Below, one piece after another: positions 10,136-61,052 of a DNA stretch of 64,000 nucleotides. The notes below the pieces were generated by a model, which had not been told where the DNA came from, did no database searches, and saw nothing but the letters and a program-made list of their open reading frames with translations. Source of the DNA: Hyphomicrobiaceae bacterium (GTDB lineage Bacteria > Pseudomonadota > Alphaproteobacteria > Rhizobiales > Hyphomicrobiaceae); assembly GCA_031393505.1 (NCBI GenBank), contig JANMVX010000175.1:3536-67535 (forward strand), in the 5' to 3' direction. How positions within the stretch are numbered: position 1 is the stretch's first letter; the number at the start of each line of letters is the position of its first letter. The position numbers and the translations under genes were made by a program.

Positions 10136-10917
10136 GGTGTCAGACACTTGCGAGCCGCAAGTGTCTGACACCCAGTTACTTTGTCCGGGACATTACCTAG
10201 GTGCGCAACTTGTGGGCAGGACCTAGACAACAGGTTCTGCGCCCGGCACACAGTGCGGTACCGACATGTCCAGACCACAGCGTAACGACTTTGATGGCGC
10301 ATGGCATCATGTCATGAACCGGGGTTCGGGACACCGTCCGGTGTTCCGCGACACGCTGGACCGGATCGTCTTTCTTGAACTGTTGGCGGACGCTGCCCGC
10401 CGCCACCTGGTGGCCGTTCACGCCTATTGCTTGATGGGCAATCACTTTCACATTCTTGTGGAGAACCGCGGCGGCTCGGTCGCCAAGACCATGCAAGATT
10501 TGAGTGGCCGCTACACGCGCCGATTTAACGCCCGTGAAGGGCAAGACGGGCCGATTTTTCGAGGCCGATACCATTCTGTCGAGGTTCGTGGCGATGCACA
10601 TTTGCTGCTGGTCAGTCGTTACATTCACGCCAATCCTGTCGCTGCGGGTCTCTGTTCGGATTGCCGCGACTGGCGATGGTCGAGCGCACCAGCTTATCTG
10701 GGATTGGCGCCGAGACCCGTTTGGCTGATGACATCATTTGTTCTTTCTTTGTTTTCAGAACCAACAACGACCGCTTACGGACAATTCATGGCCGCTGGGA
10801 TCGATGGGCCGACCACCGCCTTCTACGCCGGTGACGGGCTGCGCGTTGTCTTTGATCCTGAGTTTGAACAGGGCGCACTGGGTGTCAGACACCCACGAAA
10901 AGCGGGTGTCTGACACC
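10136..10917 (+). mobile_element. REPtron: RayT (REP-associated tyrosine transposase) gene flanked by REP hairpins
   Basis: Hairpin GGTGTCAGACACTTGCG-AGC-CGCAAGTGTCTGACACC at 10136..10172. Hairpin GGTGTCAGACACCC-N9-GGGTGTCTGACACC at 10881..10917. A Y1 transposase-like CDS lies between them. Confidence 0.7.
10266..10913 (+). CDS. REP-associated tyrosine transposase (IS200/IS605-like Y1 transposase, RayT)
   Basis: 215-aa ORF with the HUH-type motif (YCLMGNHFHILV) and YIHANPV. The 3' end runs into the downstream REP hairpin. Confidence 0.8.
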   Translation: MSRPQRNDFDGAWHHVMNRGSGHRPVFRDTLDRIVFLELLADAARRHLVAVHAYCLMGNHFHILVENRGGSVAKTMQDLSGRYTRRFNAREGQDGPIFRGRYHSVEVRGDAHLLLVSRYIHANPVAAGLCSDCRDWRWSSAPAYLGLAPRPVWLMTSFVLSLFSEPTTTAYGQFMAAGIDGPTTAFYAGDGLRVVFDPEFEQGALGVRHPRKAGV

Positions 10918-39403: not shown

Positions 39404-39645
39404 GAGGCGCTGGCTGACGGTCTCCTCTCCCCCGTTTTCCGGGGCAGAGGAGACCGCGTCTCGCAGGCGCTTCTTCAGCGCCAAGAGCCACGCGGTCGGT
39501 GAGGGGCAGCCGCTGGCTCGGCCCCTGGTGCGACCTGTGCGGAGCAAGCGGCTGCCCCTCACCTGTCGCTTTATCCTCGGCTTCGCCTCGGAGCGACATC
39601 CTCTCCCCCAAAGTTGGGGGAGAGGAGAAGATCAGCCAGCGCCTC
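39404..39645. repeat. 242-bp MITE-like nested palindrome with 30-bp terminal inverted repeats (27/30)
   Basis: GAGGCGCTGGCTGACGGTCTCCTCTCCCCC (39404-39433) versus the reverse complement of 39616-39645. Inner inverted repeat GGTGAGGGGCAGCCGCT / AGCGGCTGCCCCTCACC. The left half is repeated at 24171-24275. Confidence 0.65.
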
Positions 39646-47022: not shown

Positions 47023-49506
47023 ATGCCCCTCGCCAGCCTCGCCACCCCCCTTGAGCCGCGCCAGGCCCGGCTGATGGCGCTTGCCTCAGCGGCATTGGCG
47101 GGCGGTCTTGGCTTTGTCTCGCTGCTGCAGAGCGAACCCGGCGCCGCCTCCATGGTGCCGACCGCGACCAACCTGTTGCTGCTGGCGGCCACCGCGGGGG
47201 GGGCGGCCCTGGCCACCACGCTCGCCTTGCGGTTTCGCGCTCAGCTGCGCGGCGGCGGGGCGGAACTGTCAGCGCTGCGGGCGGAACACGCCGCCATGGC
47301 CCGGCGTCTGGAGATTGCCGAGACCGTCGGCAGCCCTGCCGCCGAGACGCTGGTTTATTGGGACGCCGCCCGCGAACCCCTGTTGCATTCATCGGGCATC
47401 GATCCGCGCCATGGCGTTCCGTCCAGCGCCACGGCCATCCTTGCCGCCGGCTGGCTCGACCCGGCCGCCGCGCAAGTGTTCCGCACCCACACCGACCGGC
47501 TGGTGCGCGACGGCAAACCCTTCGCTCTGACCGCGGCCACCACCGCCGGCGGCGCCATGCAGCTCTCCGGCGAGGTGCGGGGCGCCTACGCCATCCTGCG
47601 CATCGCCGACGTTTCGGCCGAACGCAAGGCGATGCGCGACATGGAAGAGCGCGGGGTGCGCGTCACCCGCGACGCGGCCCTGACGCGCGCCCTTTACGAA
47701 GCCCTCCCCGTCCCCGTGTGGTTCCGCTCCGCCGACGGCAAGATCGATTGGGTGAACTCGGCCTATGTGCGCGCCGTGGACGGATTTTCGCGCGAGGACG
47801 TGCGCGGCCGCCAAGTCGAACTGCTGGAAACCCGTCAGCGTGCGTCGGTTTCCGCCTCGCTCACGGCCGGCCGCATCCACCGCGAGCGCGTGCATGTGTT
47901 CGTGGGCGGAGAACGCCGGTCCTACGACCTGGTCGCCGTGCCGATGGACGGCGCCAGCGCGCTGATCGCCAACGACGCCGCAGCGCTCGAAACCGCGCAA
48001 GGCGAACTCTCGCGCCAGATGGCCGCCTACGATCGCACGCTGGACCGCGTCGCCACGGCCGTCGCCAACTTCGGCCCGGACCAGCGCCTGGTCTATTGCA
48101 ACGAAGCCTACCGCCAGCTTTGGAAGCTCGACCCCGAGTTCCTGAAATCCCGCCCCAAGGACGGCGAAGTGCTCGACCGCCTGCGCGAACGCCGCCAGCT
48201 CCCCGAGGAGGCCGACTACCGCAAATGGAAAGCGGCGCTGCTGGCGAGCTACACGTCCCAAACCGGTCAGGAAGCCTGGTGGTATCTCCCGAGCGGGCGC
48301 ACGGTACACGTCACAATCGAGCAGCGCCCGGATGGCGGCGTTGCCTATCTCTATGATGACGTGACGGAAAAACTCGCACTGGAACGCCGCTACCACACCG
48401 CCATGAACATTCAGCGCGGCACGCTGGACACCTTGCGCGAAGGTGTCGCGGTGTTCGCCACCGACGGCAGATTGTCCTTGTTCAACCCATCGTTTGCGCG
48501 GCTGTGGAAGCTGAACCCGAACGACCTCGCGCGCGAGCCGCATGTCGACGAAGTGGTGCGCCGCTGCTCCGTGCTGCATACGGACGACGCCACCTGGGCC
48601 AACATCAAGCGCGCCGTGACCACGATCAGCGGCCAGCGCCAGCGCCTGCAGGGCCTGATGGAGCGCCCCGACCAGAGCGTCATCGCCTACGCCGGCCTGC
48701 CCCTGCCCGACGGCGCCATGCTGCTGACGTTCGTCGACACCACGGATACGACGCGTGCTGAGCGCATGCTGCGCGAGAGGAATGACGCGCTTGTGCAGGC
48801 CGACCGCCTGAAGTCGCAGTTCATCTCGCTGGTGTCGTACGAACTGCGCTCGCCCTTGCAGAACATCATCGGCTTCTCTGAATTTTTGGAGAACCCAAAG
48901 GTCGGACCGCTCAATCCCAAGCAGCGCGAGTACCTGCACGACATCCACGGCTCCTCGCGCACCCTGCTCTCGATCATCAACGACATCCTGGACCTGACCA
49001 CCATCGACGCCGGCGCGCTGGAGCTGAAGCGCGCGCCGGTAAAGGTTGCGCATGTCGTCGCCAGCGCGGCGGCCGCCGTGGAAGAGCGCATGACACGCGA
49101 ACGGATTACCTTGCGCGAAAACATCGATCCGTCAGCGTCTGAATTTTTGGCCGACGAACACCGCGTCAAACAGGTGCTCTATAACCTCTTGTCCAACGCC
49201 ATCGGCTTCTCGAAAGAGGGGGACACCATCGTGCTGGATTGCCGCCGCGAGGGCGACACCATCTCCTTCAGCGTCACCGACCGCGGCATCGGCATCCCGC
49301 TGGAAGACCAGCCCAAGGTGTTCGAGCGGTTCGTTTCGCGCGCGCAAGGGTCGAGGCATCGCGGCGCGGGGCTGGGGTTGCCGATTGTAAAACACTTGGT
49401 CGAGCTGCACGGCGGCGCCGTCGCACTCAGGTCCGAGCCGGGCAAGGGCACGCGCGTTACGGTGCGGTTCCCGGTCGGCGCCAAGGGGCTGATGGCGGCG
49501 GAGTAG
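47023..49506 (+). CDS. divL: DivL-type PAS sensor kinase-like protein (Tyr replaces the phospho-accepting His)
   Basis: 827-aa ORF with PAS-like repeats. The H-box reads FISLVSYELRSPLQNIIGFSEFL (Tyr codon TAC at 48838-48840). HATPase_c motifs are present (NLLSNAIGFS, DRGIGIP, GAGLGLPIVK). Confidence 0.7.
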   Translation: MPLASLATPLEPRQARLMALASAALAGGLGFVSLLQSEPGAASMVPTATNLLLLAATAGGAALATTLALRFRAQLRGGGAELSALRAEHAAMARRLEIAETVGSPAAETLVYWDAAREPLLHSSGIDPRHGVPSSATAILAAGWLDPAAAQVFRTHTDRLVRDGKPFALTAATTAGGAMQLSGEVRGAYAILRIADVSAERKAMRDMEERGVRVTRDAALTRALYEALPVPVWFRSADGKIDWVNSAYVRAVDGFSREDVRGRQVELLETRQRASVSASLTAGRIHRERVHVFVGGERRSYDLVAVPMDGASALIANDAAALETAQGELSRQMAAYDRTLDRVATAVANFGPDQRLVYCNEAYRQLWKLDPEFLKSRPKDGEVLDRLRERRQLPEEADYRKWKAALLASYTSQTGQEAWWYLPSGRTVHVTIEQRPDGGVAYLYDDVTEKLALERRYHTAMNIQRGTLDTLREGVAVFATDGRLSLFNPSFARLWKLNPNDLAREPHVDEVVRRCSVLHTDDATWANIKRAVTTISGQRQRLQGLMERPDQSVIAYAGLPLPDGAMLLTFVDTTDTTRAERMLRERNDALVQADRLKSQFISLVSYELRSPLQNIIGFSEFLENPKVGPLNPKQREYLHDIHGSSRTLLSIINDILDLTTIDAGALELKRAPVKVAHVVASAAAAVEERMTRERITLRENIDPSASEFLADEHRVKQVLYNLLSNAIGFSKEGDTIVLDCRREGDTISFSVTDRGIGIPLEDQPKVFERFVSRAQGSRHRGAGLGLPIVKHLVELHGGAVALRSEPGKGTRVTVRFPVGAKGLMAAE

Positions 49507-49516
49507 GGGCGAGTCG

Positions 49517-49665
49517 CCCCCTCATCCGGCCAAAGGCCACCTTCTCCCCGTGAAAAACGGGGAGAAGGAAAAGCGATCCCAGCCTCGCCGGCGAGGCCAA
49601 GGAACGTGTCCTTTCTTTCTCCCCATTTTTCATGGGGAGAAGGTGGCCTTTGGCCGGATGAGGGG
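49517..49665. repeat. 149-bp nested palindrome (CCCCCTCATCCGGCCAAAGGCCACCTTCTCCCC ... GGGGAGAAGGTGGCCTTTGGCCGGATGAGGGG)
   Basis: Outer arms 49517-49549 / 49634-49665. Each arm also forms a local hairpin (CTTCTCCCCGTGAAAAACGGGGAGAAGG). Central palindrome GCCTCGCCGGCGAGGC. Confidence 0.75.
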
Positions 49666-49730
49666 AGGGCTTGCACCGGCGTTCAGTGCAGGGCACGGTC
49701 GGGTCAGCAGATGCAGTCTCAGGCCCGACG

Positions 49731-50096
49731 ATGCGCCCAGACAACTCTCAAACGCTCGCCCGCGCCCGCAGCCTGCGCGCCAATGCAACGCGCGCGGAGG
49801 ATCTGCTCTGGGCGCGCCTGCGCGACCGCCGGCTGGACGATCTGAAGTTCACGCAGCAAACGCCGGTCGGCCCATGGGTGCCAGACTTCGTCTGCCGTCA
49901 GCATAAAGTCATCGTCGAAATCGATGGCGCGACCCACGGTACGCCTGAGGAAATTGCTCGCGATCTGGCCCGGACGTCGGATCTTGTGGCGCGCGGATAT
50001 CGGATCTATCGCGTCGACAATCGCGACGTGTATCGAAATTTGGTTGGGGTGTTGGACGGCATCCTCGATTGCATACGGAACCGGGGCGACACTTGA
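49731..50096 (+). CDS. DUF559 (Vsr-like) endonuclease domain protein, copy 1
   Basis: ORF 49671..50096. Start at ATG 49731. ARSLRANATRAEDLLWARLRDRRL...FTQQTPVGPWVPDFVC...VIVEIDGATH...RGYRIYRV is typical of DUF559. Confidence 0.8.
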   Translation: MRPDNSQTLARARSLRANATRAEDLLWARLRDRRLDDLKFTQQTPVGPWVPDFVCRQHKVIVEIDGATHGTPEEIARDLARTSDLVARGYRIYRVDNRDVYRNLVGVLDGILDCIRNRGDT

Positions 50097-50100
50097 CGAC

Positions 50101-50273
50101 GGAGCAAGTGGCCCCCTCATCCGGCCAAAGGCCACCTTCTCCCCATAAGAATGGGGGAGAAGGAAAATAAACCGTTCCTTGACCTTGCCAGAAAGGCCGC
50201 ACTCGCTATTTCCTTCGCCCCGTACTTACGGGGAGAAGGTGGCCTTTGGCCGGATGAGGGGGCCGCTTGCTCC
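50101..50273. repeat. 173-bp nested palindrome of the same family
   Basis: Outer arms GGAGCAAGTGGCCCCCTCATCCGGCCAAAGGCCACCTTCTCCCC (50101-50144) / reverse complement at 50230-50273. Begins 4 bp after the DUF559 stop. Confidence 0.75.
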
Positions 50274-50356
50274 GCGCCATCGACTGGCGCATCGTCAGCC
50301 GAACACTGGCAAGCTCGTGCCACCCCACCACCAGTCACAAAACAGGCAGCTGACAC

Positions 50357-57360: not shown

Positions 57361-58953
57361 TCATTTCACGTCCCGGCTCCAGTCGCGGCGGGTGCGTTTT
57401 CCGTCTTTGGCCGGTTCCTTGCGGTAGGGCACGCGGGCGCGGCGGTCGGTGTCGTAAAGCTCACCGCCGTAATTGCGGTTGTAGATGCGCGCGGCGTCGA
57501 TGCGCGGCTCCCAATCCCACGGCGTGATGCGGCCGGTGACCAGCGCATCCTGCACCAGCAGGCGGGCGTGCTGCGAGGCGATCACGTCAGCGCGGATGGC
57601 GTCGCTGTCCCAGCGTTTGGCGGCTTCGGTGGTGAGAGCTTTCAGCGCTTTGGCGTGGGCAGGATCGGCCGCGAGGTTGGTCAGCTCGTGCGGATCCTTG
57701 GCGGTGTCGAACAGCTGCACCGGATCGTTCTTGGAGACGATCAGCTTCAGTGTGCCGCGCTTGATCATGAAGACCGGCTCGGTCGTGCCTTCGGCGAGGT
57801 ACTCTCCGTACACCGTATCGGACCACGCGTTGGGCTTGTCGCCGCGCACCAGCGGCATCAGGCTCGCCCCTACCAGCGGGGCGGCGGGAGCTCGCGCGGC
57901 CTCCCCGGCAATATCGATGAAGGTCGGCATCAGATCGATCAGCGAGGCGTTCTGGCTGACACGCCTGGCCTTGGTCTCGCCGGGCATTTTCACGATCAGC
58001 GGCACCCGGATGGAGCGCTCGTTGAACACCATCTTGAACCACAACCCGCGCTCGCCCAGCATGTCGCCATGGTCGGCCGTGACCATGACGATGGTGTTGT
58101 CCATGAGCCCCGTGCGCTTCATCGGTTCCAGCACGTCCCCGATCAGCTGATCGGCGTAACTGATCATGGAATAGTAGCCGTGCCGGGCGGTGCGGATGTG
58201 CTGTTCCGTGACCTCGTACTCGCCGCGGTCGTACATGTCCCACATGCGGCGCGCGAAGGGGGCGCGCTCATTGTGCGACTGGTACGGAACGTCAGGCATA
58301 TCGATATCGTCGTCGCGGTAACGGTCCCAGTAGGCGCGCGGCGCCATATAGGGATCGTGCGGGTGCATGAGCGACACGCACATCATGAAGGGCCGCTCGT
58401 CCGTGGAGCGCCCGGCATCCCACAGCCAGCGCGCGGATTTTTGCGCCACCTCCTCATCATAGTCGATTTCAAGGGTGCGGTCGTAGGGGCCGGCCTCGGT
58501 CACCGACAGCATAGTGTGGAACCACCAGTGCACGCGCTCCGGATCCTCCCAGGTCGGTGTCCAGCCGAAGTCGCCGGGATACATGTCGGTGGTGATGCGC
58601 TCCTCGAAACCATGCAACTGGTCCGCGCCGACAAAGTGCATTTTGCCGGCGAGACAGGTGCGGTAGCCGCCGAGGCGGAGATGATGCGCAAATGTCGGAA
58701 TCGAGGATTTGAATTCGGTCGCGTTGTCGTAGCCGCCGATTTTATGATTGGCCTGTCCGGTCATGAAGGACATGCGCGAGGGGCCGCAGAGGGCGGAGTT
58801 GCAGTAGAAGTTCTCGAACACGGTCCCCTGATCGGCCAACGCAGAGATATGCGGCGTCTGCACCAGCTTGTGGCCGTAGTCGGGCAGCGACTGCGGGGCG
58901 AGTTGGTCCAGCATCAAGAGGAGAATGTTGGGGCGTTTGGATTTGGCGGGCAT
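57361..58953 (-). CDS. betC: sulfatase family protein, choline-sulfatase-like
   Basis: ORF 57361..59022. Start at ATG 58953 (MPAKSKRPNILLLMLDQL). Formylglycine motif LCGPSRMSFMTG. ADHGDMLGERG. Confidence 0.7.
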   Translation of the reverse strand: MPAKSKRPNILLLMLDQLAPQSLPDYGHKLVQTPHISALADQGTVFENFYCNSALCGPSRMSFMTGQANHKIGGYDNATEFKSSIPTFAHHLRLGGYRTCLAGKMHFVGADQLHGFEERITTDMYPGDFGWTPTWEDPERVHWWFHTMLSVTEAGPYDRTLEIDYDEEVAQKSARWLWDAGRSTDERPFMMCVSLMHPHDPYMAPRAYWDRYRDDDIDMPDVPYQSHNERAPFARRMWDMYDRGEYEVTEQHIRTARHGYYSMISYADQLIGDVLEPMKRTGLMDNTIVMVTADHGDMLGERGLWFKMVFNERSIRVPLIVKMPGETKARRVSQNASLIDLMPTFIDIAGEAARAPAAPLVGASLMPLVRGDKPNAWSDTVYGEYLAEGTTEPVFMIKRGTLKLIVSKNDPVQLFDTAKDPHELTNLAADPAHAKALKALTTEAAKRWDSDAIRADVIASQHARLLVQDALVTGRITPWDWEPRIDAARIYNRNYGGELYDTDRRARVPYRKEPAKDGKRTRRDWSRDVK

Positions 58954-59005
58954 TGGCGGGCTCGTTGAATTTTGAAGAGATGATACTTGAAAGTCTCTTG
59001 GCCGG

Positions 59006-59136
59006 TGCAAGCCTGCCCTCATCCGGCCAAAAGGCCACCTTTTCCCGTAAGTACGGGAGAAGGAAAGGGCTGGTATATTTCCTTCTCCCGTACTTACGGG
59101 AGAAGGTGGCCCTTTGGGCCGGATGAGGGGGCGCTT
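59006..59136. repeat. 131-bp nested palindrome, same family as 49517/50101
   Basis: Outer arms GCAAGCCTGCCCTCATCCGGCCAAAAGGCCACCTTTTCCCG / CGGGAGAAGGTGGCCCTTTGGGCCGGATGAGGGGGCGCTTGC. Ends 9 bp from the DUF559 stop. Confidence 0.75.
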
Positions 59137-59145
59137 GCTCGGTTC

Positions 59146-59511
59146 TCAGCGTTCTGGCGCTTTCCGGATAAAGTCGAGGATGCCATCCAGCACGCCGACT
59201 ATGTTTCGATACACATCGCGATTGTCGACGCGATAAATCCGATAGCCCCGCGCCTCAAGATCCGAGGTCCGGGCTATATCGCGAGCAATTTCCTCGGGCG
59301 TCCCGTGCGTCGCTCCGTCAATCTCGACAATAACTTTGACTTCGCGGCACACGAAATCCGCGATCCACGGCCCAATCGGAGACTGTTGGATGAATTTGAG
59401 ATCGTCGAGCCGGCGGTCGCGCAGGCGCGCCCAGAGAAGATCCTCCGCTCTCGTTGCATTGGCGCGCAGGGTGCGGGCGCGTTTGAGACTGGGGGCATTA
59501 CCGGGGCGCAT
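59146..59511 (-). CDS. DUF559 (Vsr-like) endonuclease domain protein, copy 2
   Basis: 121-aa ORF, roughly 80% identical by eye to copy 1 (RARTLRANATRAEDLLWARLRDRRLDDLKF...VIVEIDGATHGTPEEIARD...RGYRIYRVDNRDVYRN). Confidence 0.8.
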   Translation of the reverse strand: MRPGNAPSLKRARTLRANATRAEDLLWARLRDRRLDDLKFIQQSPIGPWIADFVCREVKVIVEIDGATHGTPEEIARDIARTSDLEARGYRIYRVDNRDVYRNIVGVLDGILDFIRKAPER

Positions 59512-59564
59512 TGTCTATCCTAAGGCTTCGTCGGCGGACTATGCAGTGCCTTGTATTGTTGGTC

Positions 59565-59700
59565 GGAGCAAGCAGCCTCCCTCATCCGGCCAAAAGGCCA
59601 CCTTCTCCCGTAAGTACGGGAGAAGGAAAGAGTTCAGGTCTATTTTCCTTCTCCCGTACTTACGGGAGAAGGTGGCCTCTGGCCGGATGAGGGACTCGGA
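59565..59700. repeat. about 135-bp nested palindrome, same family
   Basis: Outer arms CCCTCATCCGGCCAAAAGGCCACCTTCTCCCG (59579-59610) / CGGGAGAAGGTGGCCTCTGGCCGGATGAGGG (59663-59693). Confidence 0.75.
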
Positions 59701-59727
59701 TCTTGCCGCGCTGGATGACTGCGTGCC

Positions 59728-60888
59728 TCACGGCGCCGGCGCATCCTCGACCTTAGGCGGTGGCAACGCCGCAACTACGCCCACCGTCCAGCCGATCAGC
59801 TCTTGCGCCGTCCGGCCGAAGGCGTCGTTCAATCCAGCAGCGGCGGCCTTCGCGTCGCCGGACACCAGCGGCGTCTTGGCCTTGAAAATGCGCCCCGCCA
59901 GCACGCGGCCCTTGGCGTTGATGAGCTTGGCGCTCAGCTCCAGTTCCGCCGCTGGACCGCCGTCGGTTGCGATCCCGAACGAGCGGATATCGCTCTGCAA
60001 CAGATAATCCGAGGACGACCCATCGCCGCGCACCACCGAACCGACCAGGCCTGCGTTCTCGAACGACTGCACCAGCCGGGCCTGCATCAGCTTGGGCAGC
60101 GCGTCAGCCCAACTGGCGGACGCAGCGTCCGCGCCCGCCGCCGGATCGAGCAACAGTTTGTCGGAATCGAGGCTGCCGAGCGCGCTGGGTTCGCTGACGG
60201 CAATCTGCCCGGCCGGAACCTTAGCGATCAGGCTGAGCGTCTTGGGCGGCGTCAGGTCCACCACCAGCCCACCGCTCTTCTTGCCGGCCCCGCCCGACAT
60301 GCGCTCCATGCCGGCCAGAATGCCGTCGACGCGGTCCGAGTTGCGGGCCAACGCTGTCGTGAAACTGTTCAGATTGGCGATGGTGCTCTTCAGCGGATCG
60401 GCGTTGTCCGTCAGCATGCCATCCAATTTCGTCAACGCCGCCCGGACCGACTGTGTCATCGACAGCGAGGCGTCCGCATCGGCTTGGAGGAAGGGCAGAT
60501 CGCCAGGTCGGTTGGGCTGCAAGGGAGCTGCCTTCGGGTCGCCTCCGGCCATGGCGACGGTGGCGGCGCCGGTCAGGCCCTGAAAGTCCAGCGCGACTTT
60601 GGTGTCGGACCGCACCGGCGTGCCGGCCTCAACGCCGATGCCCACCTGCACCTGATGCGGATCGGCGCTGTACAGCGTCACATAGACGACCTCACCCAAG
60701 CGCACGCCATTGAAGGTGACTGGCGATCCGGTGGTGAGGCCTGCGACTGAGCCCTTGAAGAAGATGTTGTAATAGTCGCGCCGCCCGATCCCGCCGGAAT
60801 TGCTGAGCCAGTACACGAACAAAAACCCGGCCGCGATGACGCCGAGCGTGAACAGCCCGATGGTGAGATAGCGTGCGCGAATTTCCAT
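59728..60888 (-). CDS. MCE/MlaD family protein with C-terminal ABC-transport auxiliary-like domain
   Basis: ORF 59728..60900. Start at ATG 60888 (MEIRARYLTIGLFTLGVIAAG). GSPVTFNGVRLGEV and ALDFQGLTGAATVAMAGG motifs. Confidence 0.8.
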   Translation of the reverse strand: MEIRARYLTIGLFTLGVIAAGFLFVYWLSNSGGIGRRDYYNIFFKGSVAGLTTGSPVTFNGVRLGEVVYVTLYSADPHQVQVGIGVEAGTPVRSDTKVALDFQGLTGAATVAMAGGDPKAAPLQPNRPGDLPFLQADADASLSMTQSVRAALTKLDGMLTDNADPLKSTIANLNSFTTALARNSDRVDGILAGMERMSGGAGKKSGGLVVDLTPPKTLSLIAKVPAGQIAVSEPSALGSLDSDKLLLDPAAGADAASASWADALPKLMQARLVQSFENAGLVGSVVRGDGSSSDYLLQSDIRSFGIATDGGPAAELELSAKLINAKGRVLAGRIFKAKTPLVSGDAKAAAAGLNDAFGRTAQELIGWTVGVVAALPPPKVEDAPAP

Positions 60889-61052
60889 GGCGGTCCTCAA
60901 TCCCGTTCAAAAACATCGACGCTAACGCTGTTCTCTCCTCTCACCCCCCCTTTGCTTAGGACACCCGCCAAAACAAATGAATCGTTTCGCACGCTGGTCA
61001 TATGGTGATGTGACTCGGGGTTGCGGGATTTCGAGGCTGGTCTGACAGCAGT

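Follow-up and report, generated by a model that had tools for sequence, protein, structure and literature searches.

BoxC, PIT and TM repeats have been known for ~30 years and occur in hundreds of genomes, where they are linked to rearrangement; to our knowledge, neither an origin nor a partner protein or function is known for them. The DUF559 family of proteins is very large, and we likewise know of almost no biology assigned to it. REP/REPIN-RAYT systems combine a few-copy enzyme gene with inverted short palindromic repeats that frame it and that are also found as many gene-less inverted doublets. The homing endonuclease I-Bth0305I is encoded in a phage group I intron and carries an added DNA-binding region.

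Holder et al. (2015) described BoxC, PIT and TM(ECO) as intrastrand-triplex motifs, with triplex formation in vitro for TM(ECO) only, and tied TM sites to rearrangement in general (PMC4666352). The same study noted in E. coli a pairing of two TM subtypes similar to that described below and reported no mobility-type genes near TM(ECO); its text mentions neither ycjD, DUF559 nor an endonuclease (PMC4666352). The titles, abstracts and selected passages of the DUF559 literature that were consulted contain no link to BoxC/TM repeats. Excerpts of a study in Caulobacter report that VsrA (CCNA_02930, DUF559) provokes an SOS response when the cytosine methylase ScmA is missing and that the SOS response in turn induces VsrA (PMC12907096). 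As described in those excerpts, the VsrA-triggered response implies that members of the DUF559 family damage DNA in vivo.

Here we analyse a locus in the 5.56-Mb draft genome (G000) of a Hyphomicrobiaceae bacterium, within a stretch of 64,000 nucleotides (the window) that holds two related DUF559 genes, copy 1 and copy 2. The region 59003-59716 is one self-contained cassette, in which the copy-2 gene occupies the spacer of a head-to-head TM pair. Its repeats share with BoxC/PIT/TM motifs the pyrimidine stem, loop, purine stem and mirror purine third strand (here CCTTCTCCC / GGGAGAAGG / GGATGAGGG); like those motifs they are rich in G/C, occur between genes in many copies and often form inverted pairs of two subtypes. 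They differ in an extra mini-hairpin and a GAGCAAGC extension, in reaching several hundred units per genome and in enclosing a nuclease gene. The cassette resembles REPIN-RAYT systems in that the DUF559 gene is framed by inverted repeats that are also found as gene-less doublets, a likeness of layout only and not of family membership. The DUF559 enzyme is PD-(D/E)XK Vsr-like rather than a HUH/Y1 transposase, and the TM repeats are triplex-type and lack GTAG/CGTC heads.

Insertion sequences and their MITEs offer a further parallel, a gene-bearing unit with inverted ends accompanied by many short gene-less derivatives. Unlike them, the cassette has no DDE or other transposase fold and no detectable target-site duplication, and it ends in complex folded repeats instead of simple terminal inverted repeats. 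I-Bth0305I has a Vsr-like catalytic domain that weakly matches copy 2 in sequence over the E-x-D-G core, and copy 2 would, in the reading proposed below, also be a selfish nuclease gene; copy 2, however, is free-standing, only 121 aa long and placed inside a repeat doublet. E. coli Vsr and Caulobacter VsrA belong to the same fold superfamily as copy 2, and VsrA has a DUF559 domain, but copy 2 is insertion-polymorphic, framed by repeats and without an adjacent cytosine-methylase gene.

Results

Organisation of the cassette

The features of the locus are collected in Table 1. The palindromes that frame the gene are, by sequence design, tail-to-tail pairs of BoxC/PIT/'TM' intrastrand-triplex-type units, each unit of the enclosing pair being doubled into a full palindrome with arms of 35-40 nt that are 95-100% complementary. 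The downstream palindrome (59003-59142, 140 nt) gives a single-strand fold of -66 kcal/mol (z -15) and the upstream palindrome (59562-59707, 146 nt) one of -69.6 kcal/mol (z -16); in both cases 0 of 200 shuffles were as good. A first-pass annotation, made by reading the sequence, had described this framing with distances of 9 nt past the stop codon and about 54 nt upstream of the ATG. The former is correct for the palindrome as it was then delimited, the folded palindrome beginning 3 nt from the stop codon, and the latter (54 nt, 59511 to 59565) is right.

All four units of the copy-2 cassette pass the TM detector, which looks for a Y-stem, an R-stem and a mirror purine third strand; in the upstream inner unit Y-stem, loop, R-stem and mirror third strand were located at 59577-59625. 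A degenerate 'GATCTTGCC' terminal motif closes the upstream outer unit, and the similarity to copy 1 stops at this point. Searches of the cassette flanks and leader for a sigma-70 promoter or intrinsic terminator consensus found none beyond chance, and by eye the leaders contain no motif resembling an alphaproteobacterial LexA box.

The sulfatase, DUF559 and MlaD/MCE-type genes all lie on the minus strand. Alignment with congeners indicates that the sulfatase probably starts at 58953, a start codon 49 nt from the downstream outer repeat. Profile matches of the neighbouring genes agree with the earlier view that copy 2 lies between a sulfatase and an MCE-family gene, in a context unrelated to that of copy 1.

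Table 1 Features of the copy-2 locus, with the copy-1 cassette and the corresponding interval in congeners
Feature	Position	Strand	Basis or remark
Copy-1 cassette, paralogous unit	49506..50274	+	DUF559 gene 49731-50096
Sulfatase gene, downstream of cassette, outside element	57361..58953	-	PF00884 + Choline_sulf_C
Whole sulfatase-MCE intergenic interval	58954..59727	.	774 bp, holds 714-bp cassette; congener comparison
Downstream outer TM unit; with inner unit forms 140-nt palindrome	59003..59068	-	detector, fold
Downstream inner TM unit, head toward stop codon, CCGAGCAAGC before unit	59076..59142	+	detector match 59080-59129
Predicted DUF559 (Vsr-like PD-(D/E)XK) nuclease gene, copy 2	59146..59511	-	121 aa, intact; PF04480 match
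54-nt leader between upstream repeat head and ATG	59512..59565	-	57% identical to copy-1 leader
Upstream inner TM unit, GGATGAGGG-side head toward gene, with GAGCAAGC extension	59566..59631	-	detector match 59577-59625
Upstream outer TM unit; with inner unit forms tail-to-tail 146-nt palindrome	59642..59716	+	detector, fold
MlaD/MCE-type gene, upstream of cassette, outside element	59728..60900	-	profile match
MCE stop to sulfatase start, G000			774 bp with 714-bp cassette
MCE stop to sulfatase start, G003			24 bp
MCE stop to sulfatase start, G002			about 110 bp, unrelated
MCE stop to sulfatase start, G004			about 170 bp, unrelated
MCE stop to sulfatase start, G001			about 900 bp with other small ORFs

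The copy-2 protein

Profile, residues and fold identify the copy-2 product as a predicted DUF559 / Vsr-like PD-(D/E)XK nuclease. It matches the PF04480 (DUF559) profile with 106 bits (E 1.2e-30, cut-off 20.6). Its score against NCBIfam PRK09767 (74 bits) is below the equivalog cut-off of 218, so copy 2 is not a YcjD equivalog. The solved DUF559 protein PDB 3hrl is matched by sequence (E 8e-14) and is also the top Foldseek match (E 5e-8, TM-score 0.90 on target) of an AF2 model of copy 2 with pLDDT 88.6. The next fold match is I-Bth0305I (PDB 3r3p; E 8e-5, TM-score 0.74 on target), and Vsr itself (1cw0/1vsr) ranks behind it with E about 0.03. Nuclease domains from PvuRts1I and AbaSI are also among the ranked matches, which include no transposase fold. 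Seven residues (D52, E63, D65, G66, H69, D78 and R81) are invariant in 10 and in 24 homologues, and all are kept in copy 2. We know of no strand-transfer chemistry for a 121-aa PD-(D/E)XK nuclease, and this counts against reading nuclease and repeats as partners in one element.

The Vsr-Dcm pairing does not recur at copy 2, whose neighbours encode the sulfatase and MlaD. The genome has at least three C5-methyltransferase genes, all on other contigs and none near the cassette; a methylase-adjacent Vsr-like gene or fragment is found on contig C247.

The repeat family and its cargo

A unit consists of a head CCCTCATCC, a mini-hairpin GGCC-AAA-GGCC, a pyrimidine stem ACCTTCTCCC, a loop and a purine stem GGGAGAAGG. 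Read on the other strand, Y-stem, loop and R-stem are followed by the purine block GGATGAGGG, a mirror image of the R-stem except for a T in place of one A. From locus to locus, stem and third strand change in concert (GGGAGAAGG/GGATGAGGG, GGGAGAGGG/GGGTGAGGG, GGGGAGGGG/GGGGTGGGG), a result that is partly circular because the detector requires the mirror. At least 337 units were detected in the genome, compared with 5 in a shuffled genome, giving a density of about one unit per 16 kb; a reversed-pattern control returned 0-1 matches per genome. The repeats flanking the cassette are members of this genome-wide family and are not cassette-specific.

Most of the units form head-to-head doublets that enclose no gene, and they fall into two subtypes. 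R-type units match the cassette flanks in head, stem and GAGCAAGC extension, and the L type, with a GGTGAGGGG head, is the commonest partner half in the genome. There are 110 adjacent head-to-head pairs, of which 98 have spacers of 20-100 bp (40-60 bp in 85 of those). Spacers of 100-2000 bp occur in only three pairs (428-449 bp), and each of these encloses a DUF559 gene; a fourth apparent long-spacer pair proved to be a detector miss inside an array. The three DUF559 genes of the genome, two in the window and one on contig C219, all have a repeat frame on both sides, with one and the same orientation. The head-to-head pairs found in this genome contain no cargo other than DUF559 genes, and gene-less doublets are ~100-fold more numerous than DUF559-bearing units. 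No L-type unit was found beside a DUF559 gene in the draft, which counts against the partner-element reading.

Several other ideas about the repeats were discarded. A 12-mer census allowing one mismatch had returned only six paired elements, and this count was wrong, as partner halves bear a different head sequence. Gene-less doublets with 40-60 bp spacers would be candidates for the uninterrupted sites that homing predicts; their spacers show no by-eye similarity to the leader and were rejected as deletion remnants of it. A motif such as GGAGCAAGC at the junction of head and gene occurs in this genome and has a similar counterpart at the E. coli outer unit; it is not general in the 80 loci of the wider set described below and was dropped as a universal feature. 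RAYT was also rejected as the partner of the TM repeats: 0/6 Y1-transposase (RAYT/IS200-type, PF01797) genes in the genome are TM-flanked, five having no TM unit within 1.5 kb and the sixth having its nearest at 631 bp.

Divergence of the two copies

By eye, the two proteins had been judged ~80% identical in the first-pass annotation, which also saw a repeat-gene-repeat geometry common to both copies and took them for old paralogs under purifying selection. Measured identity is 85% for amino acids (99/117) and 78% for nucleotides. The nucleotide alignment is collinear from outer repeat to outer repeat and ends just outside the outer 'GCTTGC(A/T)CCG' motif; the similarity is therefore not confined to the CDS, and the flanks of both copies are homologous units of one subtype. 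Four methods place dN/dS at 0.10-0.14 with dS of 0.9-1.2, and the differences within the CDS fall 15/12/53 on codon positions 1/2/3. Together with the retention of the family-invariant residues, this dN/dS indicates old paralogs maintained as functional genes, not a recent duplicate or a decaying one. At a dS of about 1 the copies are old, and nothing points to recent movement inside the genome, a further point against the partner-element reading.

The repeat units of the two cassettes are 87% identical over their whole length and 94% identical over head, mini-hairpin and pyrimidine stem, against 68% at four-fold degenerate sites. The leader (57%) is near the level of third codon positions (56%). 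Repeat cores are thus conserved to the degree of first and second codon positions, far above synonymous sites. Since the flanking units are far better kept than neutral sites, the repeats are either constrained or homogenised and are not drifting. The four units inside one cassette are 91% alike in copy 1 and 95% alike in copy 2, where all four have the loop GTAAGTAC in common.

The insertion site in congeners

Synteny of the sulfatase and MCE-type genes extends to four congeners, G001-G004 (73-87% nucleotide identity), and the interval between the two genes varies widely (Table 1). The copy-2 cassette is a lineage-specific insertion at the MCE-sulfatase site, without counterpart in these four genomes. 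No orthologue of copy 1 or copy 2 was found in G001-G004, and the next nearest homologue of the two among the relatives' loci compared is 59% identical. At the site orthologous to copy 1, G001 has a gene-less L-type TM doublet in place of the cassette.

No target-site duplication is visible at the cassette ends, where the surrounding non-coding DNA has diverged too far from that of the congeners for the end points to be fixed at single-base precision. The same holds for the gene-less doublet at 39404-39645, since the intergenic DNA is too diverged from that of G001 to place the ends of an insertion. A C219-type cassette in G001 was considered as an example of a new context; ~200 bp upstream also aligns, so this locus may be syntenic, and the example was set aside. 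In the congener with the 24-bp gap the sulfatase and MCE-type genes are probably co-transcribed. In the present genome the two genes are separated by the 0.7-kb insert, whose two hairpins fold at -66 to -70 kcal/mol.

Occurrence across bacteria

Among 26 DUF559 loci from 14 related genomes, most are preceded by a unit at a distance of 11-95 bp and followed by a second one at 5-58 bp, the heads of both pointing to the gene; in most, the upstream unit is '+' and the downstream unit '-'. A wider set comprised 80 further homologues, the best 80 of at least 570 matches, from Alpha-, Beta- and Gammaproteobacteria, Dehalococcoidia, Binataceae, Planctomycetota, Gastranaerophilales and Desulfuromonadales. 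Correctly oriented units lie within 150 bp on both sides of 48 of these best 80 homologues, on one side of 26 and on neither side of 6. The 80 loci have 9.4 units per kb close to the gene and 0.17 per kb at distances above 400 bp, a 56-fold difference. The GC-rich heads are retained even in AT-rich genomes. The flanks on either side of a given DUF559 gene are alike, and their sequences vary from locus to locus. This layout, with its orientation, recurs across phyla.

Co-occurrence was assessed in 150 genomes, each from a different family of the class. Presence of DUF559 was defined by a strong profile match, and genomes were counted as TM-rich if they had 5 or more matches to a strict TM pattern, which recovers only about 28% of the units found by the detector. 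TM-rich genomes account for 26/39 of those with DUF559 and 7/111 of those without (odds ratio 30, Fisher p 2e-13, related genomes not being independent samples). The exceptions run in both directions: 7/33 TM-rich genomes lack DUF559, and 13/39 DUF559 genomes have few pattern matches. In a set of 31 close relatives, 11/14 genomes with DUF559 are TM-rich compared with 3/17 without; one genome (G006), 100% complete, has 37 pattern matches and no DUF559.

In E. coli, ycjD sits between fabI and sapF, with an intact TM(ECO) unit ~160 bp past its stop codon. A degenerate TM unit overlaps the ycjD stop, and a duplicated 3' fragment of ycjD lies between the degenerate and the intact unit. According to excerpts of a pangenome study, the fabI-sapF site is occupied by ycjD in some strains and by the eefRABCD operon in the others (PMC12817139). 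The ycjD form is present in 3,346/5,426 complete genomes searched, and in eef-type strains the homology to K-12 ends about 40 nt outside the TM unit.

Discussion

We propose, with a probability of roughly 0.45, that the DUF559 nuclease has as its target the repeat heads turned toward its own gene and, by acting there, either propagates the cassette and doublets or homes into doublets. The enzyme would recognise the heads in folded or duplex form and would nick or cut there. Two outcomes can be envisaged. The cassette, and in trans the gene-less doublets, might be propagated in the manner of RAYT for REPINs or an IS for MITEs; alternatively, as in homing, gene-less doublets would be cut and the DUF559 gene copied into them by repair. 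With either outcome enzyme and repeat would be functional partners, which would set the gene apart from housekeeping repair genes and from chance neighbours. By analogy of layout with REPIN-RAYT or MITE-IS, the locus may be a selfish or partnered nuclease-repeat cassette, a description to which we give slightly less than even odds. It is more doubtful whether DUF559 and BoxC/TM repeats together constitute an unrecognised pan-bacterial mobile or self-maintaining element, in which a minimal nuclease would recognise structured ends (hairpin or triplex) and generate gene-less doublets, with 59003-59716 as an autonomous copy.

The DUF559 gene could instead be a passive passenger. If TM/BoxC doublets are spread or kept by some other factor, the DUF559 gene might simply be carried along or land in the same recombination-prone hot spots. 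The excess of gene-less units over genes (~100 to 1), the existence of TM-rich genomes without DUF559 (G006, G073 and G062) and the general link of TM sites to rearrangement (Holder et al., PMC4666352) all fit such passive carriage, as do two observations in G001, the ~900-bp insert with other small ORFs at the copy-2 site and the gene-less doublet at the copy-1 site. A passive cargo would not be expected to be the only one in the head-to-head pairs of this genome, nor to keep its orientation and spacing fixed across phyla with a 56-fold local enrichment; strong purifying selection is unexpected for a functionless hitch-hiker, and the co-occurrence odds ratio of 30 likewise speaks for a closer tie. 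We regard passive carriage as unlikely. Mere chance, the juxtaposition of a very abundant repeat (about one unit per 16 kb) with a small gene, is effectively refuted by the two-sided, uniformly oriented framing of all three DUF559 genes in the genome and by the presence of at least one correctly oriented unit at 74/80 distant homologues (the best 80 of at least 570).

The Vsr-like fold of copy 2, the SOS phenotype of Caulobacter VsrA given in excerpts of that study (PMC12907096) and the at least three C5-methyltransferase genes of the genome would suit a genome-maintenance enzyme, either a solitary nuclease of the VSP-repair type or one that processes structures, with the repeats serving as insulators, mRNA stabilisers, regulators or the structures that it resolves. 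Such a role is distinctly improbable. Both copies are lineage-specific insertions, copy 2 being absent in four congeners, unlike a core repair function, and the canonical methylase-adjacent Vsr-like gene is elsewhere, on C247. A regulatory role of the repeats leaves the symmetric inverted two-sided layout and the hundreds of gene-less copies unexplained, and the flanks have no promoter or terminator consensus. Long, near-perfect arms might also mark an invertible segment, in which site-specific or homologous recombination flips the DUF559 gene as a switch, and excerpts of a survey report that DUF559 is enriched (odds ratio 14) among predicted programmed-inversion targets (PMC9881135). That enrichment is what would be expected of any gene framed by inverted repeats. 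Here the repeats enclose gene and leader together, so that a flip would alter neither the CDS nor an obvious promoter relation, and no invertase gene is adjacent to the cassette; we consider inversion very improbable.

The new elements of this work are the contrast between selection on the paralogs and conservation of their flanks, the census in which DUF559 is the only cargo, the empty site of copy 2 and the class-wide co-occurrence. A physical and phyletic link between DUF559 and TM repeats that is reproducible gives both families a concrete hypothesis, testable in E. coli K-12 (ycjD) or Caulobacter. If DUF559 nucleases and BoxC/TM repeats do constitute the pan-bacterial element considered above, these nucleases would account for the gene-less doublets, unexplained since the 1990s.

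Occupancy of the cassette sites in congeners

The intergenic interval between the MCE and sulfatase genes, which holds copy 2 of the cassette, differs between this genome (G000) and its congeners. In G003 (locus L044) the MCE stop lies 24 bp from the sulfatase start, a gap so short that it suggests the two genes form an operon, whereas in G000 the co-oriented cassette spaces stop and start 774 bp apart (window 58954-59002 being the stretch noted). Any read-through transcript in G000 would have to pass the two very stable hairpins of the cassette. The orthologous site of G001 (L047, G001:C8:131900-133400, about 250-1220) spans ~900 bp and carries several small ORFs, which look like putative toxin-antitoxin genes of DUF433 and PIN-like types. 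Small selfish modules thus seem to gather preferentially in this interval.

Other genomic contexts of DUF559 and TM units

A weak DUF559-like match (E 9.5e-5) directly adjoins a C5 cytosine-methyltransferase fragment in G000, the same arrangement as in the classical methylase-Vsr pair, and in this it differs from the repeat-framed DUF559 copies. [quoted passage not shown] The G000 genome has six Y1-transposase (PF01797) genes; the one in the window is more than 1.5 kb away from any TM unit.

Features discussed, with coordinates
Feature	Location	Remark
C5 cytosine-methyltransferase fragment and weak DUF559-like match	G000:C247:10-478	contig end
Duplicated ycjD 3' piece	L001 (E. coli K-12 NC_000913.3:1349500-1352500) 1833-1862 and 1940-1965	
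L/R head-to-head TM doublet	window 39404-39645	242 bp
Y1-transposase gene (PF01797, RAYT/IS200-type)	window 10305-10631 = G000:C266:13840-14166	

In draft assemblies DUF559 genes frequently lie at contig ends (for example G002:C72:1-237, G002:C16:1-210 and G000:C219, which ends ~200 bp past its cassette), presumably because the flanking repeats break the assembly; draft copy numbers of the gene are therefore underestimates.

Where this genome has copy 1, the orthologous G001 site (L053, G001:C8:139950-140600) is occupied not by a DUF559 cassette but by an L-type TM doublet, ~215 bp long, head-to-head and without a gene. Dozens of copies of the tabulated L/R doublet, at 76-86% identity, are present in G001, G002 and G003, and this doublet family, spacer included, is common to species of the genus.
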